Shown: positions 3,887 to 9,008 of the stretch, in pieces
How the letters are laid out: each line of letters begins with the position of its first letter
How positions within the stretch are numbered: the first letter of the stretch is position 1
Assembly: GCA_964412585.1 (NCBI GenBank)
Contig: CAYPPJ010000006.1
Location: 31-64,030 of the forward strand
Source: an uncultured Candidatus Saccharibacteria bacterium
GTDB taxonomy: Bacteria > Patescibacteriota > Minisyncoccia > Phycocordibacterales > PALSA-1337
Length of the DNA: 64,000 nt
Direction: 5' to 3'
The notes under the pieces: generated by a model
Databases searched by the model: none
What the model was told of the DNA's origin: nothing
What the model saw: only the letters and a program-made list of their open reading frames with translations
Translations under genes and position numbers: made by a program

Positions 3887-5050
3887 TTACTTCTTCCTCC
3901 TCAAATACCTCTTCCCTTTTAGTTTCTCCGGCAAATAACTGTCCGCGCCACTCCCCGGCTTATTCGGATATTTCTCATACCCCTTCCCATAATTCAACTC
4001 CTTCATCAGCTTCGTCGGAGCATTCCTGATCTTGAGAGGTATTGGCAAATTTCCCATCTTCCTGACATCATCGAGCGCCTCGAAATAGGCATCATTCGCC
4101 GAACGATCTTTTGCAGCCAGCGCCAGATATGCTGTACCGTGCGCCAGGTTGATCCCCGCTTCGGGGAGACCGATAGACTCCACCGCCCGAAAGACTTCAT
4201 TGGCCACGACCAGCGCCGTCGGCTGAGCCAGACCAATATCTTCCGAGGCAAAGATGACCATGCGTCGCGCAATGAACTTGGGATCTTCACCACCTTCGAT
4301 CATGCGGGCCAGATAATAGATGGCCGCATCAGCATCGCCAGCACGCATGCTCTTGATGTAGGCCGAGATGGTATCGTAATGTTCCTCCCCTTTCTTATCA
4401 AAACGGATAAAGGCGTGCTCGAAGGTATTCTTGAGGGTCTCCAGCGTGATCGAGCCATAGAGTCGCTGGGCATTTTCCAAAGCCGTGATGGCGATACGCG
4501 CGTCGCCATTGGCCAGAGCCACCAGCCAGTCCAGCGCATCCTTGGGCACCTTGATCTTGGTACGCTTCACAATACTCTTGAGGTCGGCTTCGGTGAGACT
4601 CTTCAGCACAAAGACGCGACAGCGTGACAACAGTGCGGGGATGATCTCGAAACTCGGATTCTCCGTGGTCGCGCCCACCAAGACCAGTCGACCGCTCTCC
4701 ACGTACGGCAGCAAGAAATCCTGCTGGGCTTTGTTGAAGCGATGGATCTCGTCGAGGAACAAGAGCTTGGGACGATTTTCCAGTAAGGTATCTGACTCCT
4801 CAACAATGGCACGAATGTCGTCCTTGCCCGCAGAGACAGCCGAGAGTTCGTAGAGTCGCGCATTGAGTGCCGCGGCATATATCTTGGCCAAGGTTGTCTT
4901 GCCCGTCCCCGGCGGGCCCCAGAGGATGAATGAGAAGAGATGCTTGTCAGTGATCGCCTGGTACAGCGCCTTACCCTTGCCCACCAAGTGTTCCTGGCCG
5001 ACGTAGTCTTTGAGCGTTTGCGGGCGAATGAGGGATGCGAGGGGTTGCAT
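3887..5050 (-). CDS. rarA: Replication-associated recombination protein A (RarA/MgsA), AAA+ ATPase.
   Basis: Walker A GPPGTGKTTLAK, Walker B LFLDEIHRFNKAQQD, MgsA C-terminal helical domain. Confidence 0.85.
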   Translation of the reverse strand: MQPLASLIRPQTLKDYVGQEHLVGKGKALYQAITDKHLFSFILWGPPGTGKTTLAKIYAAALNARLYELSAVSAGKDDIRAIVEESDTLLENRPKLLFLDEIHRFNKAQQDFLLPYVESGRLVLVGATTENPSFEIIPALLSRCRVFVLKSLTEADLKSIVKRTKIKVPKDALDWLVALANGDARIAITALENAQRLYGSITLETLKNTFEHAFIRFDKKGEEHYDTISAYIKSMRAGDADAAIYYLARMIEGGEDPKFIARRMVIFASEDIGLAQPTALVVANEVFRAVESIGLPEAGINLAHGTAYLALAAKDRSANDAYFEALDDVRKMGNLPIPLKIRNAPTKLMKELNYGKGYEKYPNKPGSGADSYLPEKLKGKRYLRRKK

Positions 5051-5051
5051 C

Positions 5052-6644
5052 TTATTCTTTCAGAAAACTTATAAACTCATTTTCTAGTTCAAAACTCAAT
5101 TCGCCCTGCTTAAGAGAATTCAACATTTCAATAGGCTTTTGGGAAGAAGATGCAGGCTTAGTAAATCCAAGGTATTTTTCTAAATCCGGGGTAAGTTTTT
5201 TAATGACTGACGTGTAGCTATTTTTGTTAGCAAATATATCACTATTTCTTTCTTTGTTATCAGGATTAGACTCGTCATCTATATCAAATAATACTTTATG
5301 CTTGATACCAAATTCACTACATAATGTCATAAAACGCGGAATATTATATTTTCCTCCACAATCGATAACGTAAATATTTAAACCAAGTCCCTTTTCAAAA
5401 ATTAAGTAATTCAGAAAGACTTTGTCTGTTGGGCCTTCGACTAATATGACCTCATCCACAAAAAACATGGTATTCCTGTCAGGATTCAACCATAGTATAA
5501 AATTGAAGACATCTTCTTCTAATTTCATGCCATCTAGAAATTCCTTACCTGCACGAAAAATTTCACTATGCCCATCCTTTCGAATTAATCTTGAAATACT
5601 TGCCAAGGCATCACTTTTTGTACTAATTAAGTTTGGGGAATGAGTACACAAAATGACTTGTCCAGTAGCCGATTGCGCAATCTTCTCCAAACCTATGAGC
5701 AATTTTCTTTCTTGATCATAATGCAATAAAGCCTCTGGTTCTTCATACAATAAAAGTGTAAAATTGCCATTAAAATTTTTCTTATCAGTTTTAACTCTCT
5801 TTCCTTCAATTTCTGCCCAAAGAAGCAATAAATTGTTAACTATTGCCCTCTGTGCCCCAGAGCCTAAAAACATTGGGTCTTCCTCTTGATTTGTCTCGTC
5901 AGAAATGAAACGCAGTTGAGAACCTGTCAAAACAATATCTTCTGGTGTTGGAGGTAACAATGTGATTTTGGTTCGTAAATTCCAAGAAGAAAGTTTTTTA
6001 GTTAAATCCTCTTCAATTTCATTAATGCTGTTTAAATTGCCACTATTTTTTACTGGACTCCTTAAATCTTGGGCAAAAGACTTTGTATTTTTAACAAGCT
6101 CTGTCCAGGAAGGTAATGATTCAAGGGTATCAGATATTATTCTGGTTAATAATTTCGTAAATATTGATGATTTTACCTGTTTAAGTTCATCAGAAAGACC
6201 TTTGACGGCAGGGACATAGATGATATTTCCTAACTTTCCAATTTGCACATTTTTCGCGCCAAAGAAATCCTCTTCTCGCTCTGTTATAATTCCATCACGA
6301 TTCTCAAAGCCATGAGGCTTACCTTTTAAATTATCCCTAGAAAAACGTTTAATTACTTTCAGTTTATTATCGGGTAACTTATAAAATTCAGGCAATTGAG
6401 AAAATTCTTCTTCACTTAAACAAAACTCGAGTGTTATTTCTATACTTGAATCAGCACCACATCCCCTAAAAAAATCTTCATTTGTAACATTATAATCGCC
6501 ATAAAAGGCTCTCAAAGCGTGTATTACGCACGATTTCCCTGCGTTATTTTGTCCAATAAGTGTCCAAACATCATCTTTTGGACCTGCAACTTTGACATCC
6601 TTCAAAGATCGAAAATTCTTAATTTCTACTGATAGTAATTTCAT
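5052..6644 (-). CDS. Class-1 OLD-family ATP-dependent endonuclease (N-terminal ABC-like ATPase plus C-terminal Toprim).
   Basis: IKNFRSL..LIGQNNAGKS Walker A, LLLYEEPEA Walker B, CTHSP H-loop, Toprim VILVEGPTDKVFL plus DIDDESNPDN acidic motif. Low GC relative to flanks by eye. Confidence 0.7.
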   Translation of the reverse strand: MKLLSVEIKNFRSLKDVKVAGPKDDVWTLIGQNNAGKSCVIHALRAFYGDYNVTNEDFFRGCGADSSIEITLEFCLSEEEFSQLPEFYKLPDNKLKVIKRFSRDNLKGKPHGFENRDGIITEREEDFFGAKNVQIGKLGNIIYVPAVKGLSDELKQVKSSIFTKLLTRIISDTLESLPSWTELVKNTKSFAQDLRSPVKNSGNLNSINEIEEDLTKKLSSWNLRTKITLLPPTPEDIVLTGSQLRFISDETNQEEDPMFLGSGAQRAIVNNLLLLWAEIEGKRVKTDKKNFNGNFTLLLYEEPEALLHYDQERKLLIGLEKIAQSATGQVILCTHSPNLISTKSDALASISRLIRKDGHSEIFRAGKEFLDGMKLEEDVFNFILWLNPDRNTMFFVDEVILVEGPTDKVFLNYLIFEKGLGLNIYVIDCGGKYNIPRFMTLCSEFGIKHKVLFDIDDESNPDNKERNSDIFANKNSYTSVIKKLTPDLEKYLGFTKPASSSQKPIEMLNSLKQGELSFELENEFISFLKE

Positions 6645-6696
6645 AACCTAATCCTACTCTTCCTAGAAATTTTGTCTAATAACAGTTCTTAGCGCC

Positions 6697-7212
6697 CTAA
6701 AAACAAACCACAAATGATAGAAAAATTAAGATTATACCAGCAGTTGATGCTGAAATAGCAAGTGATAGATGACTATCTATATTCTCAGCAATTTTAAGTT
6801 CTGAAACTTCTGATACGTCGTTAACGTTTGCGTCAAATTCTGAATTTATCTTACTTAATTTTGAAAAATCTTTATCAATTATTGCTTTCTTAATTTCGCG
6901 CGTTTCCCGAACTGATTGATTAATTCTTTTTTCAGTATCATTAAATTGACCGAGTAATCTGTTTTTTGTATTCAACATCAAAAACAAAATTGATCCAACA
7001 ACAAAACATTCACCAAAGAAAAATAGCTTCATGCTAATAACACTCGAAAATGCTGTAAAACCAAATCCGGCAATTAGTCCGAGTACCCCTAAAAGCGAGA
7101 TAATATAGTTAACAGAAATTTGATATTCTTCGCGATGATTTTTAAGAAATTTCTCACGCAGCGAAATTATGAACTGCCCGTATTCAATTGCTTTTTCGAG
7201 TTCAGTTTTCAT
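6697..7212 (-). CDS. Small membrane protein (two central TM helices, a C-terminal TM, a coiled-coil-like charged segment) encoded directly upstream of the OLD nuclease.
   Basis: Hydrophobic segments ISLLGVLGLIAGFGFTAFSSVI, FFFGECFVVGSILFLML and GIILIFLSFVVCF. Same low-GC island. Its stop lies 52 bp from the OLD start, and its start lies 2 bp after the upstream gene's stop. Confidence 0.5.
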   Translation of the reverse strand: MKTELEKAIEYGQFIISLREKFLKNHREEYQISVNYIISLLGVLGLIAGFGFTAFSSVISMKLFFFGECFVVGSILFLMLNTKNRLLGQFNDTEKRINQSVRETREIKKAIIDKDFSKLSKINSEFDANVNDVSEVSELKIAENIDSHLSLAISASTAGIILIFLSFVVCF

Positions 7213-7214
7213 AT

Positions 7215-7745
7215 TTAAAAATTATAAACCCACCCAGGCTGCCACTTAAAATGCGTGGTCACCAGCTTTTCCAAGGGCACACCATTCAAGACATTCTCAA
7301 TGCCATACTGGGTGGCGCGATGACCGATGACCATCACTCGCTTGCCATCATAGTTTTTCTTGAGATCATCGAGAAATGATTTCATGCGAGCCGTGGTCTG
7401 GGTATAGCTCTCGCCATTAGGAAACGGCGTCGAGATGCGCTGCGGCTTTTCGGCATCAACGATCTCGCTGGGCTTCTGGGTCAGATCGCCATAATTGCAT
7501 TCGCGGAGCCTTGCATCGCGGATGATGGGCCACTTGGTGCCAAAGCCGATCTCGGCGCTCTTGTACGCACGCTGGAGGTCGGAGCAGAAAATGGCATCGA
7601 AGTGGTCGTCCTTGTAACGCTGGCCCATCTCGACCGACTGACGTTCACCGAGCGGCGAGAGCGCGACATCATTCCATCCGGATGACAGATGGGCTTCGTT
7701 GTCGAAGGTGGTGCCGTGGGCTTCGAAGATGAGGGTGAGGGGCAT
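7215..7745 (-). CDS. Histidine phosphatase (phosphoglycerate mutase) family protein with a variant active-site motif.
   Basis: LIFEAHGTT...GWNDVALSPLGERQ...VMVIGHRATQ family pattern. The canonical RHG reads AHG. Confidence 0.55.
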   Translation of the reverse strand: MPLTLIFEAHGTTFDNEAHLSSGWNDVALSPLGERQSVEMGQRYKDDHFDAIFCSDLQRAYKSAEIGFGTKWPIIRDARLRECNYGDLTQKPSEIVDAEKPQRISTPFPNGESYTQTTARMKSFLDDLKKNYDGKRVMVIGHRATQYGIENVLNGVPLEKLVTTHFKWQPGWVYNF

Positions 7746-7871
7746 GCCACTATAGTACTCCCCTCCAGTGCATTGATGAATATTGACATGAGTCTATATT
7801 CGTGCTTATATATTATTAACTGCACTTTATGTGCCTCAAAAGCACAGCAAACCACAACACAAAGGACACCC

Positions 7872-8378
7872 GTGAATTTCAAAAACTCACGACTCAAAAT
7901 TGCCTATTACGATGAACCTGACATGGCGCCAAATCCTCTACAATGTGTCGCCTATCATATCTACGGCAGACAAATCGTCTTTACCGGCTTACACAACGGT
8001 GATGACGGTCCGCGCGGATCTACGATCAACTACGCAGAAGAGGTCGTCCGAGCGATTGCTACGCAAGAAGCGATTGATGGACGTCGGTATACTTTCTACG
8101 ATCTGCAGACGTGCCGTGGGTATGGTGGGCGTGGCGGAGAATATTACCGAGGAAGTTATTGCCTCAATGAGCTCGAGCTCTCCTGGCCACAAGATGGCAA
8201 CACACCCAATCGTGACGTTAGATGGATTGAAGGTCATGCCAATGAGGAGGTTCTGTCCGATTTCGCAGAATTCATCTGGGATGATCTGCCCGTCGGAACA
8301 CCTATAAACATTGCTGTCCAACGAGGCGGACTCAAGCCGTTACTACCCCAGCAAAAACTGCTGAGTACACGCGCGTGA
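7872..8378 (+). CDS. Hypothetical protein; GTG start chosen after an AAAGGA RBS because the longer ATG ORF would be antisense to the phosphatase gene.
   Basis: ORF followed by a terminator hairpin. No recognisable motifs. Confidence 0.35.
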   Translation: MNFKNSRLKIAYYDEPDMAPNPLQCVAYHIYGRQIVFTGLHNGDDGPRGSTINYAEEVVRAIATQEAIDGRRYTFYDLQTCRGYGGRGGEYYRGSYCLNELELSWPQDGNTPNRDVRWIEGHANEEVLSDFAEFIWDDLPVGTPINIAVQRGGLKPLLPQQKLLSTRA

Positions 8379-8549: not shown

Positions 8550-9008
8550 ATGAATAAAACAACTGAACTCCTCAACCTAATAAAATGGATGGCTATACAA
8601 GCTCAACTTCAGCTAGCCCCGCAATCTCAATTTCCTGAAAGGAAACAAATATGGTGGGCGTGTCTAGGACAAAATATCGGTATTGAAACAAACGGCAAAA
8701 ACTATCGTTTTGAAAGACCGGTATTGGTAATAAAAGCATTCAATGCGTGCGCGCTATTTGTCGCACCTCTCACAAGCACTCTAGGGACTCATCAATTTCT
8801 TATTGAATTTAACCACCTAGGACAAAAGAAATCAGTCAACGTGTCTCAATTGCGAACACTAAGTGCCAAAAGATTTACAAAAAAGATCTCCGACATGTCA
8901 GATGCTGATTTTGACCGCATTATTTCATCGATTCAGAAAATTGTCCTCAATAAACCTGAAACCCCGCAGAGCGGGGTTTCTTTTGAGCTCCCTCACGAAG
9001 TGGAGTAA
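8550..9008 (+). CDS. PemK/MazF/Kid-family toxin-like protein, orphan.
   Basis: KQIWWACLG..G.E..G, RPVLVI, VAPLTS and SQLRTLS resemble Kid/PemK (GEIW, RPVLIV, VVPVTS, Q.RT.D). AT-rich. No antitoxin ORF upstream. Confidence 0.55.
   Translation: MNKTTELLNLIKWMAIQAQLQLAPQSQFPERKQIWWACLGQNIGIETNGKNYRFERPVLVIKAFNACALFVAPLTSTLGTHQFLIEFNHLGQKKSVNVSQLRTLSAKRFTKKISDMSDADFDRIISSIQKIVLNKPETPQSGVSFELPHEVE

Follow-up and report, generated by a model that had tools for sequence, protein, structure and literature searches.

An intact Class 1-type OLD nuclease gene in a strain-variable slot between a histidine phosphatase gene and rarA of a Patescibacteria genome

The window analysed here, a 64-kb stretch of DNA from a Candidatus Saccharibacteria genome, contains a low-GC segment of 2,164 bp (positions 5051 to 7214, coding on the minus strand) that encodes an OLD family nuclease and a small membrane protein with three hydrophobic helices (TM protein). 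This segment is probably acquired cargo of a hotspot between a histidine phosphatase gene and rarA, with a standalone Class 1 OLD nuclease as its functional core and a TM protein that is no dedicated partner of it. We observed that the domains of the nuclease are intact, that the composition of the segment is foreign, that the content of the slot varies among relatives, and that conserved co-occurrence of the two genes is absent.

The 530-aa protein (positions 5052 to 6644, minus strand) belongs to the OLD family and, with ATPase and Toprim both intact, is of the Class 1 type. Pfam AAA_15 matches aa 1-340 (4.8e-31), Pfam OLD-like_TOPRIM matches aa 394-456 (1.5e-15), and the best PADLOC model is Old (2.8e-50, aa 1-484). 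The ABC-type ATPase region (aa 1-340, positions 5625 to 6644, minus strand) carries the Walker A motif GQNNAGKS (31-38), the ABC signature LGSGAQR (260-266), the Walker B motif LLLYEEPE (297-304), and the H-loop THSP (334-337). The Toprim core (aa 394-458, positions 5271 to 5465, minus strand) carries VILVEGPTDK (399-408) and DIDDE (454-458), which include the predicted catalytic Glu403 and the acidic motif D454-x-D456. In an alignment of 27 subfamily sequences (A1), none of the core residues of the above motifs varies, nor do E403, D454, and D456, which align with the Toprim of TsOLD; nuclease activity is predicted from these conserved catalytic residues. The first-pass annotation had described a full OLD architecture, and every motif that it named is present, with both ATPase and Toprim intact on profile search; it had also placed the nuclease gene 52 bp downstream of that for the membrane protein, and we confirmed both open reading frames, on the minus strand with 52 nt between them.

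The same annotation had assigned the nuclease to Class 1, and this assignment is borne out by the ranking of structure matches, the similarity to phage P2 Old, the protein length, and the gene neighbours. A search of solved structures with the subfamily profile ranked TsOLD (6p74) best (E 2.4e-25, 92 bits), ahead of GajA (E 3.7e-14, 55 bits); the Eco8 OLD was matched at 2.9e-9 over the N-terminus only, and AriA at 2.3e-7. Phage P2 Old shares 25.9% identity with the protein over aa 1-460 (E 4e-17). At 530 aa, the protein is close in length to TsOLD (528 aa) and shorter than GajA chains (575-675 aa), and, judged by length and alignment, it appears to lack the Class 2 Toprim helical insert. Membership of the other OLD classes was considered and rejected. 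We found no gene for a UvrD-like helicase in the segment or its flanks, so that the adjacent GajB of Gabija (Class 2) is missing; the gene downstream, rarA/mgsA, codes for an AAA+ protein and not for an SF1 helicase. Pfam lists no reverse transcriptase domain for any gene within ±8 kb (L008), and with the NCBIfam Eco8 effector model the protein reaches 50.9 bits, short of the cut-off of 250, which speaks against a retron-associated (Class 3) OLD. A single open reading frame encodes both ATPase and Toprim, with no separate AriB (DUF4435), which sets the protein apart from PARIS (Class 4). Taken together, the evidence points to an ordinary single-gene Class 1 OLD, a known kind of nuclease.

The closest OLD homologues (50-65% identity) are from Patescibacteria, and in this analysis the subfamily was seen only in Patescibacteria-type contigs. 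We compared ten distinct neighbourhoods of these homologues. In about eight, the homologue is nested in or adjoins restriction-modification (R-M) genes, including HsdS, HsdM, Type II methyltransferases and restriction enzymes, and Type III Mod and Res, and we therefore place the subfamily in a defence context; one homologue (L028) is located between a Type III mod and its res. The neighbours otherwise differ from one context to the next, with no conserved partner gene.

The segment extends from the stop codon of the phosphatase gene to the start codon of rarA and has a GC content of 0.331, whereas the 2.5-kb flanks reach 0.543 and 0.482. No other region of the window falls below 0.40 GC (1-kb windows; mean 0.476, sd 0.039), and GC at third codon positions (GC3) is 0.264 in the OLD gene and 0.233 in the TM gene, compared with 0.68 in rarA and 0.695 in the phosphatase gene. 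The contrast is far beyond chance, and the segment is clearly foreign by composition and horizontally acquired. The AT-rich character and horizontal acquisition suggested at first reading are thus upheld by windowed GC and codon-position analysis, both of which separate the segment from its flanks. No att-like direct repeats, terminal inverted repeats, shared junction motif, or integrase were found at the segment ends, so integrase-mediated insertion is unsupported; entry by recombination-based replacement within the conserved flanks is more likely. A phage origin of the cassette is likewise unsupported, as IMG/VR viral contigs yielded no relatives of the OLD subfamily or of the TM family, and GenBank phages none of the TM protein. 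The 52-nt spacer between the TM and OLD genes (positions 6645 to 6696, minus strand) is purine-rich (AGGAAGAG...) ahead of the ATG and contains one weak promoter-like match. Promoter- and terminator-like sites in the region are no commoner than in shuffled sequence, and for this reason no independent transcription unit can be assigned to the TM and OLD genes.

Comparison with relatives shows that the slot is a strain-variable hotspot flanked by core genes. On the left is a conserved gene for a histidine phosphatase (His_Phos_1, 176 aa, GC 0.546; positions 7215 to 7745, minus strand), which shares 86-88% nucleotide identity with relatives that carry other cargo, and on the right is the conserved rarA/mgsA (387 aa, GC 0.546; positions 3887 to 5050, minus strand). 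Three relatives (L049, L051, and L053) retain both flanking genes at 80-88% nucleotide identity and have unrelated cargo between the same junctions: homology with them ends at or within ~15 bp of position 7215 and restarts at 5050-5056. The cargo of L049 comprises a DUF2726 nuclease-fold protein together with proteins of 186 and 341 aa, that of L051 a HerA-like ATPase of 657 aa (matched by the PADLOC HerA model at 3.8e-28), and that of L053 a SLOG-methyltransferase, a Zeta toxin, and three small open reading frames. GC content of this cargo is 0.36-0.376, compared with values near 0.5 in the flanks. OLD, the HerA-like ATPase, the Zeta toxin, and the DUF2726 protein are suggestive of cargo rich in defence or conflict genes; several open reading frames among the cargo of the slot had no match, and we found no complete known system there.

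The position of the OLD gene, on the same strand as rarA with its stop codon 1 nt from the rarA ATG, could also be read as functional coupling, in which the OLD protein would serve a housekeeping role in DNA replication or repair together with RarA instead of defence. Such non-defence members of the family exist: archaeal Cran1 is an OLD-family ATPase with a non-defence role (PMC12796447). We consider this reading extremely improbable, since in the relatives unrelated cargo comes just as close to rarA (overlapping it by 1 nt at one extreme and 12 nt away at the other), the OLD gene varies among strains and is foreign in composition, its closest homologues reside in R-M loci, and adjacency of OLD and rarA across the lineage is contradicted.

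The other gene of the segment (positions 6697 to 7212, minus strand) encodes an all-helical protein of 171 aa from an uncharacterised family with the motif G[IL]IAGFGFTAF...LFFxGE...G..L.F.SF. Its hydrophobic segments span about aa 32-59, 60-82, and 148-171, the second and third being separated by a charged helical segment of ~65 aa, which agrees with the topology described at first reading. The protein has no match in Pfam, NCBIfam, PADLOC, or PHROGs, and a Foldseek search of the PDB with its AF2 model (pLDDT 84.8) returned nothing beyond generic matches to long helices, none with E below 1. An exhaustive HMM search recovered 105 representatives of this small family, whose helical membrane proteins occur in low-GC CPR-like genomes. 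The nearest homologue (P0002, 68% identity) comes from a contig of 1 kb that stops at this gene. Other members occur in housekeeping contexts, beside Mur ligase/PBP and FtsEX/CTP synthase genes.

Some family members adjoin phosphatase genes, and the ATG of the TM gene lies 2 nt past the phosphatase stop codon. The TM gene could accordingly be tied to the histidine phosphatase in function or synteny, with OLD as a separate insertion between this pair and rarA. In L066/L067, a family gene is located directly upstream of the gene for a phosphatase that is 44% identical, over its full length, to the phosphatase of the window (E 1.5e-55), in L004-L007 a family gene adjoins a more distant His_Phos_1-like gene, and three of the six sampled family contexts are phosphatase-adjacent. 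Against such a tie, L004-L007 and L066/L067 are syntenic and therefore not independent, and in L004 the match to His_Phos_1 is a faint one. Gene order is moreover reversed (phosphatase then TM in the window, TM then phosphatase elsewhere), GC3 differs strongly between the two genes, and close relatives keep the phosphatase gene without the TM gene, with the homology break no more than ~15 bp from the phosphatase stop codon. We regard a functional or syntenic tie between the TM and phosphatase genes as unlikely.

The first-pass annotation had proposed that the nuclease and the membrane protein form a new two-gene configuration, and co-occurrence fails to support it from either side. Five non-self contexts of the TM family were sampled from the 105 representatives (P0003, P0004, P0255, P0256, and P0258), and none has an OLD or PARIS-like gene within 5-8 kb, where the contig reaches that far. 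Conversely, none of the ten distinct contexts of close OLD homologues has a TM-family gene (tblastn) or any adjacent small TM open reading frame, and none of 12 distant OLD contexts has a TM-family gene. The TM protein is thus not supported as a dedicated OLD partner, and we attribute the adjacency of the two genes in one strain to the variable hotspot whose cargo slot holds them both. A dedicated abortive-infection-like system, in which the membrane protein would serve as sensor, anchor, or effector, is quite improbable on these grounds, even though the two genes are 52 nt apart on one strand in a common low-GC segment and remain intact in every contig of this strain population with a complete OLD gene. 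The one exception among the distant OLDs (L023, 30% identity) has a three-TM open reading frame ~100 bp upstream, which is non-homologous to the TM protein. Further arguments against a pair are the lack of PADLOC, PHROGs, and fold matches for the TM protein, the housekeeping contexts of its family, and the fact that Class 1 OLDs are known to act alone (PMC12392090, PMC10568477). If it were true, a two-gene system would provide a fifth genetic context for the OLD family and a way into the question of how Class 1 OLDs detect infection.

The TM and OLD genes may nevertheless have been acquired together as one fragment, as they are co-oriented, closely spaced, and of the same extreme composition. 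A variant of the pairing idea is that the TM protein was recruited in this lineage only recently, to anchor a Class 1 OLD at the membrane or to act as its sensor, in which case the pair would be too young for conserved co-occurrence; the contig of the nearest TM homologue (P0002) might carry it. We judge such a nascent pair very improbable. The one positive argument for it is adjacency. In a separate contig (L014), the OLD gene breaks off near aa 284 and gives way to unrelated low-GC sequence without Pfam matches, which may reflect a rearrangement or an assembly chimera.

Returning to the reading that we prefer, a standalone OLD gene as hotspot cargo, we propose that horizontally acquired DNA fills the slot between the phosphatase gene and rarA in this Patescibacteria (Paceibacteria-type) genome, and that the TM gene either arrived in or was brought to the slot that also holds OLD. 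By analogy with P2 Old, TsOLD, and the Vibrio cholerae OLD, the protein would probably act as a homodimer, in which a two-metal Toprim nuclease, under control of the ABC-type ATPase, would nick or degrade invading (phage) DNA. OLD would then be a standalone defence gene against phages or mobile elements, and its transcription may be by read-through from the phosphatase gene through to rarA.

The nearest known systems are the Class 1 OLDs, which include phage P2 Old, Thermus scotoductus OLD (PDB 6P74), Vibrio cholerae Vc OLD, and E. coli YbjD. The protein resembles them in length and in having no helicase, reverse transcriptase, or separate nuclease partner, yet its identity to P2 Old is only ~26%. 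With Gabija it shares the ATPase-Toprim architecture, and many PADLOC GajA models match it (1e-18 to 1e-30), but it is about 50 aa shorter than GajA, and a GajB/UvrD-like helicase is absent on either side, both here and in nine of the ten closest OLD contexts; the exception (L033) has a PIF1-type helicase upstream. PARIS follows a similar logic of ABC ATPase plus Toprim, but the AriA model and structures match only the ATPase part of the protein, and AriA and AriB are separate where ATPase and Toprim are fused here.

In genomic setting, the subfamily departs from the description of Class 1 OLDs. According to a 2023 review, Class 1 OLD genes are not proximal to other defence genes (PMC10568477), whereas members of the present subfamily are mostly inside or beside R-M operons. 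This context is like that of the HEC-04 ABC-ATPase-TOPRIM fusions, which are embedded in defence systems (bioRxiv 10.1101/2024.01.29.577857); the likeness is one of gene context, and the copy in the window differs in being located in the phosphatase/rarA hotspot and not in an R-M system. A Patescibacteria OLD subfamily that is habitually nested in R-M operons qualifies the textbook picture of Class 1 OLDs as isolated genes.

Defence hotspots flanked by core genes have been described in E. coli, Pseudomonas, and Vibrio. The P2 old locus has also been described as such a hotspot (PMC10568477). The phosphatase/rarA slot differs from known hotspots in lacking an integrase, att repeats, and a junction motif, and in having cargo packed gene-to-gene in an apparent operon of a very compact CPR genome. 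It resembles them in its conserved flanks, its strain-specific low-GC cargo, and, suggestively, its conflict-type genes (OLD, HerA-like ATPase, DUF2726 protein, and Zeta toxin), and it indicates that Patescibacteria, although their genomes are very compact, swap OLD nucleases and other conflict genes at a sharply defined hotspot between core genes.

Both the ORF listing and the sequence place the gene of the 171-aa three-TM protein (6697-7212, minus strand) first and the co-oriented 530-aa OLD gene (5052-6644, minus strand) second, separated by a 52-nt spacer, as the first-pass annotation had it. The packing is extremely tight: 2 nt lie between the stop codon of the flanking histidine phosphatase gene (7215-7745) and the start of the TM ORF, and 1 nt between the end of the OLD ORF and the ATG of rarA/mgsA (3887-5050). 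GC content is 0.331 in this island (5051-7214, minus strand) versus 0.543 and 0.482 over the 2.5 kb on either side, and across the whole 64-kb window only the island falls below 0.40 (1-kb windows; mean 0.476, sd 0.039). GC3 is 0.264 for OLD and 0.233 for TM, compared with 0.68 for rarA and 0.695 for the phosphatase gene. The island is compositionally foreign, and the contrast with both flanking genes described at first reading is borne out. Promoter- and terminator-like matches in the region are no commoner than in shuffled sequence, so the island is probably transcribed by read-through from the phosphatase gene.

By the named relatives of RarA (Candidatus Pacebacteria, Taylorbacteria, and Paceibacterota), the host is assigned to Patescibacteria. 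Close relatives retain both flanks, with nucleotide identities of 86-88% for the phosphatase gene and 81-84% for rarA, and their homology to the window stops at the end of the phosphatase gene (7215), or no more than about 15 bp from it, and restarts at 5050-5056. In between, one relative carries a DUF2726 (restriction-endonuclease-like) protein and unassigned proteins of 186 and 341 aa (L049:6001-9955), another a 657-aa HerA-like ATPase (L051:6001-9667; PADLOC HerA, 3.8e-28), and a third a SLOG/LOG-methyltransferase fusion, a Zeta toxin, and three small ORFs (L053:3273-8167). In a further locus (L057:5399-8167), which has no nearby phosphatase gene, a Zeta toxin gene and two ORFs lie upstream of rarA, and L059 has an ordinary intergenic region there. 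The alternative cargoes are all low in GC (0.36-0.376 vs about 0.5 in the flanks), and all cargoes are packed gene-to-gene, run in the same direction as rarA, and abut it at distances between a 1-nt overlap and a 12-nt gap. Neither repeats nor att-like sites nor a common junction motif were found at the slot, and no integrase lies within it. Since the same flanks enclose different cargo between identical junctions, the slot between the phosphatase gene and rarA (region 3887-7745 with both genes) is a strain-variable hotspot flanked by core genes in this Patescibacteria lineage. The simplest route of cargo exchange is homologous recombination in the conserved flanks, with low-GC donors; the OLD subfamily has a GC content of 0.33-0.36, and this subfamily and the TM family occur in genomes of 0.32-0.44 GC. 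The proposed horizontal acquisition is thus upheld by the foreign GC and GC3 and by the variable slot with its sharp homology breaks.

A contig from the same sample series (L014:1-5252, equivalent to window 8281-5792) shows full identity to the window as far as 5792, at about aa 284 of OLD; from there it runs on in unrelated low-GC (0.343) sequence, whose five ORFs lack significant Pfam matches. Either OLD is disrupted in that strain or the contig is an assembly chimera. Beyond the phosphatase gene, a PemK/MazF-like toxin gene (8550-9008, plus strand; 152 aa, Pfam 3e-11) has GC (0.405) and GC3 (0.366) below its surroundings and occupies the same place in L051 and L053. An antitoxin for it was not identified, and the co-oriented upstream ORF of about 200 aa (7776-8378) has no Pfam match.

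The OLD protein matches Pfam AAA_15 (aa 1-340, 4.8e-31) and OLD-like_TOPRIM (aa 394-456, 1.5e-15), and its top PADLOC model is 'Old' (2.8e-50, aa 1-484), with AriA and many GajA models ranking behind. Walker A (aa 31-38), the ABC signature (aa 260-266), Walker B (aa 297-304), the H-loop (aa 334-337), and the Toprim catalytic set (Glu403, D454-x-D456) have core residues that are invariant across the nearest relatives in a 27-sequence alignment. Judged by these profiles and motifs, the ATPase and the Toprim catalytic set are both intact, as first proposed. The nearest solved structure is the Class 1 OLD of Thermus scotoductus (TsOLD, 6P74; 6.6e-12 for the single sequence and 2.4e-25 for the subfamily profile), followed by GajA (3.7e-14), retron Eco8 OLD (2.9e-9, N-terminus only), and AriA (2.3e-7); phage P2 Old aligns over aa 1-460 (25.9% identity, E 4e-17). 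Genetic context and length are the criteria that separate the OLD classes (PMC10568477, PMC7049728). Because no helicase or reverse-transcriptase gene lies near OLD, a single ORF encodes both ATPase and Toprim, and its kin are TsOLD and P2 Old, the protein is a Class 1 OLD by every computationally testable criterion, in agreement with the original assignment.

OLD belongs to a distinct subfamily of about 530 aa (50-65% identity), whose named members are from the 'Parcubacteria group' or 'Patescibacteria group'. Genome and metagenome scans yielded 13 close OLD loci representing 10 distinct contexts; tblastn of the TM family against all 13 gave no match, and no small TM ORF abuts OLD at these loci. 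The nearest homologs instead nest in or abut restriction-modification operons: HsdS overlaps the OLD start in L024 and L030 (with HsdM and DUF2130 upstream in L030), a Type I/IIG-like methylase lies upstream and HsdS downstream in L016, a Type II methyltransferase neighbours OLD in L017, RadC lies upstream and a MutH-type Type II REase downstream in L027, Type III mod and res enclose OLD in L028, and L033 and L032 have a Type ISP C-terminal domain protein with a PIF1 helicase and a C5-methylase with Vsr, respectively. Among 12 distant OLD loci (about 23-31% identity), a three-TM ORF lies upstream only in L023, a gammaproteobacterial MAG (1 of 22 OLD contexts). This 124-aa ORF (L023:5530-5904), about 100 bp upstream of an OLD homolog with 30% identity, is not homologous to the window TM protein.

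Five non-self TM-family neighbourhoods were retrieved, and all of them lack OLD- and PARIS-like genes within 5-8 kb, as far as the contig reaches. They comprise FtsEX, an acetyltransferase, TM, a distant His_Phos_1-like gene, and PfkB (P0003, 48% identity); DUF2569, TM, a TPR protein, and HSP20 (P0004, 44% identity, Candidatus Nomurabacteria); a CBASS CD-NTase/Cap15 pair 1.7-3.2 kb upstream, three small ORFs, TM, and PG-binding proteins (P0255); PBP, Mur ligase, two ORFs of no assigned family, and TM (P0256); and FtsEX, CTP synthase, LOG, a 241-aa ORF, TM, His_Phos_1, and an acetyltransferase (P0258). For the nearest homolog, P0002 (68% identity), the contig is 1 kb long and stops at the gene. 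With no co-occurrence from the TM side (OLD in 0/5 contexts) or the OLD side (TM family in 0/10 close contexts), the suggested new module of OLD and a dedicated membrane partner is not supported; this is the outcome that the first reading itself named as refuting the pairing. We consider it very improbable that OLD and TM became associated very recently in this lineage alone. The CBASS-like pair near P0255 (L061:1771-3293; a CD-NTase C-terminal domain protein and a Cap15-type effector) and a DNA methylase, all 1.7-5 kb upstream of P0255, form a defence island in a further CPR-like genome; the island is set apart from the TM gene by three small ORFs and a gap of 430 bp.

The TM protein has no match in Pfam, NCBIfam, PADLOC, or PHROGs. 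A word-indexed search returned only three relatives, and an HMM run exhaustively over 1.84 billion cluster representatives gave 105 family proteins at E <= 1e-3 and 29 at <= 1e-10, mostly 160-215 aa long, with the motif G[IL]IAGFGFTAF...LFFxGE in TM helices 1-2 and G..L.F.SF in the last helix. One representative, P0257, ends in ...EIGRASCRERV, which resembles translated sequencing-adapter sequence; we take the entry to be probably an artefactually terminated ORF. An AF2 model (25 sequences, pLDDT 84.8) is all-helical (H4-57, H61-112, H116-130, H141-168) and predicts a TM hairpin with helices that continue as a soluble stalk, probably in the cytoplasm, and then a TM helix at the C-terminus; Foldseek against the PDB gave generic long-helix matches only (E >= 1). 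A His_Phos_1 phosphatase adjoins the TM-family gene in three of six sampled contexts (window 6697-7745, L066:5001-6174, L004:36-1634), and the L066 phosphatase shares 44% identity with that of the window over its full length (E 1.5e-55), in reversed gene order; a functional or syntenic link between the two proteins is possible. The housekeeping envelope and division contexts and the recurrent phosphatase adjacency suggest a lineage-specific membrane protein, not the defence effector initially envisaged.

P2 Old and TsOLD have 5'-3' exonuclease activity and linearise plasmids (PMC7049728, PMC10568477), and the nickase Vc OLD blocks replication of the phage genome (PMC12392090). By analogy with characterised Class 1 enzymes, the window OLD would form a homodimer in which the ATPase regulates a two-metal nuclease, would nick or degrade phage DNA and thereby block phage genome replication, and may act as a single-gene defence; the neighbourhoods of its closest homologs are of defence type.

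The window OLD lacks a defining feature of each of Gabija, retron-type OLD, and PARIS. Class 1 OLD genes have been described as not proximal to other defence genes (PMC10568477), whereas its closest homologs lie in or beside restriction-modification operons. This nesting resembles the ABC-ATPase-Toprim fusions already described within other defence operons (HEC-04, bioRxiv 10.1101/2024.01.29.577857), and core-gene-flanked hotspots are a known phenomenon. With its Class 1 features, and with both embedding and hotspots described before, the finding belongs to a known kind.
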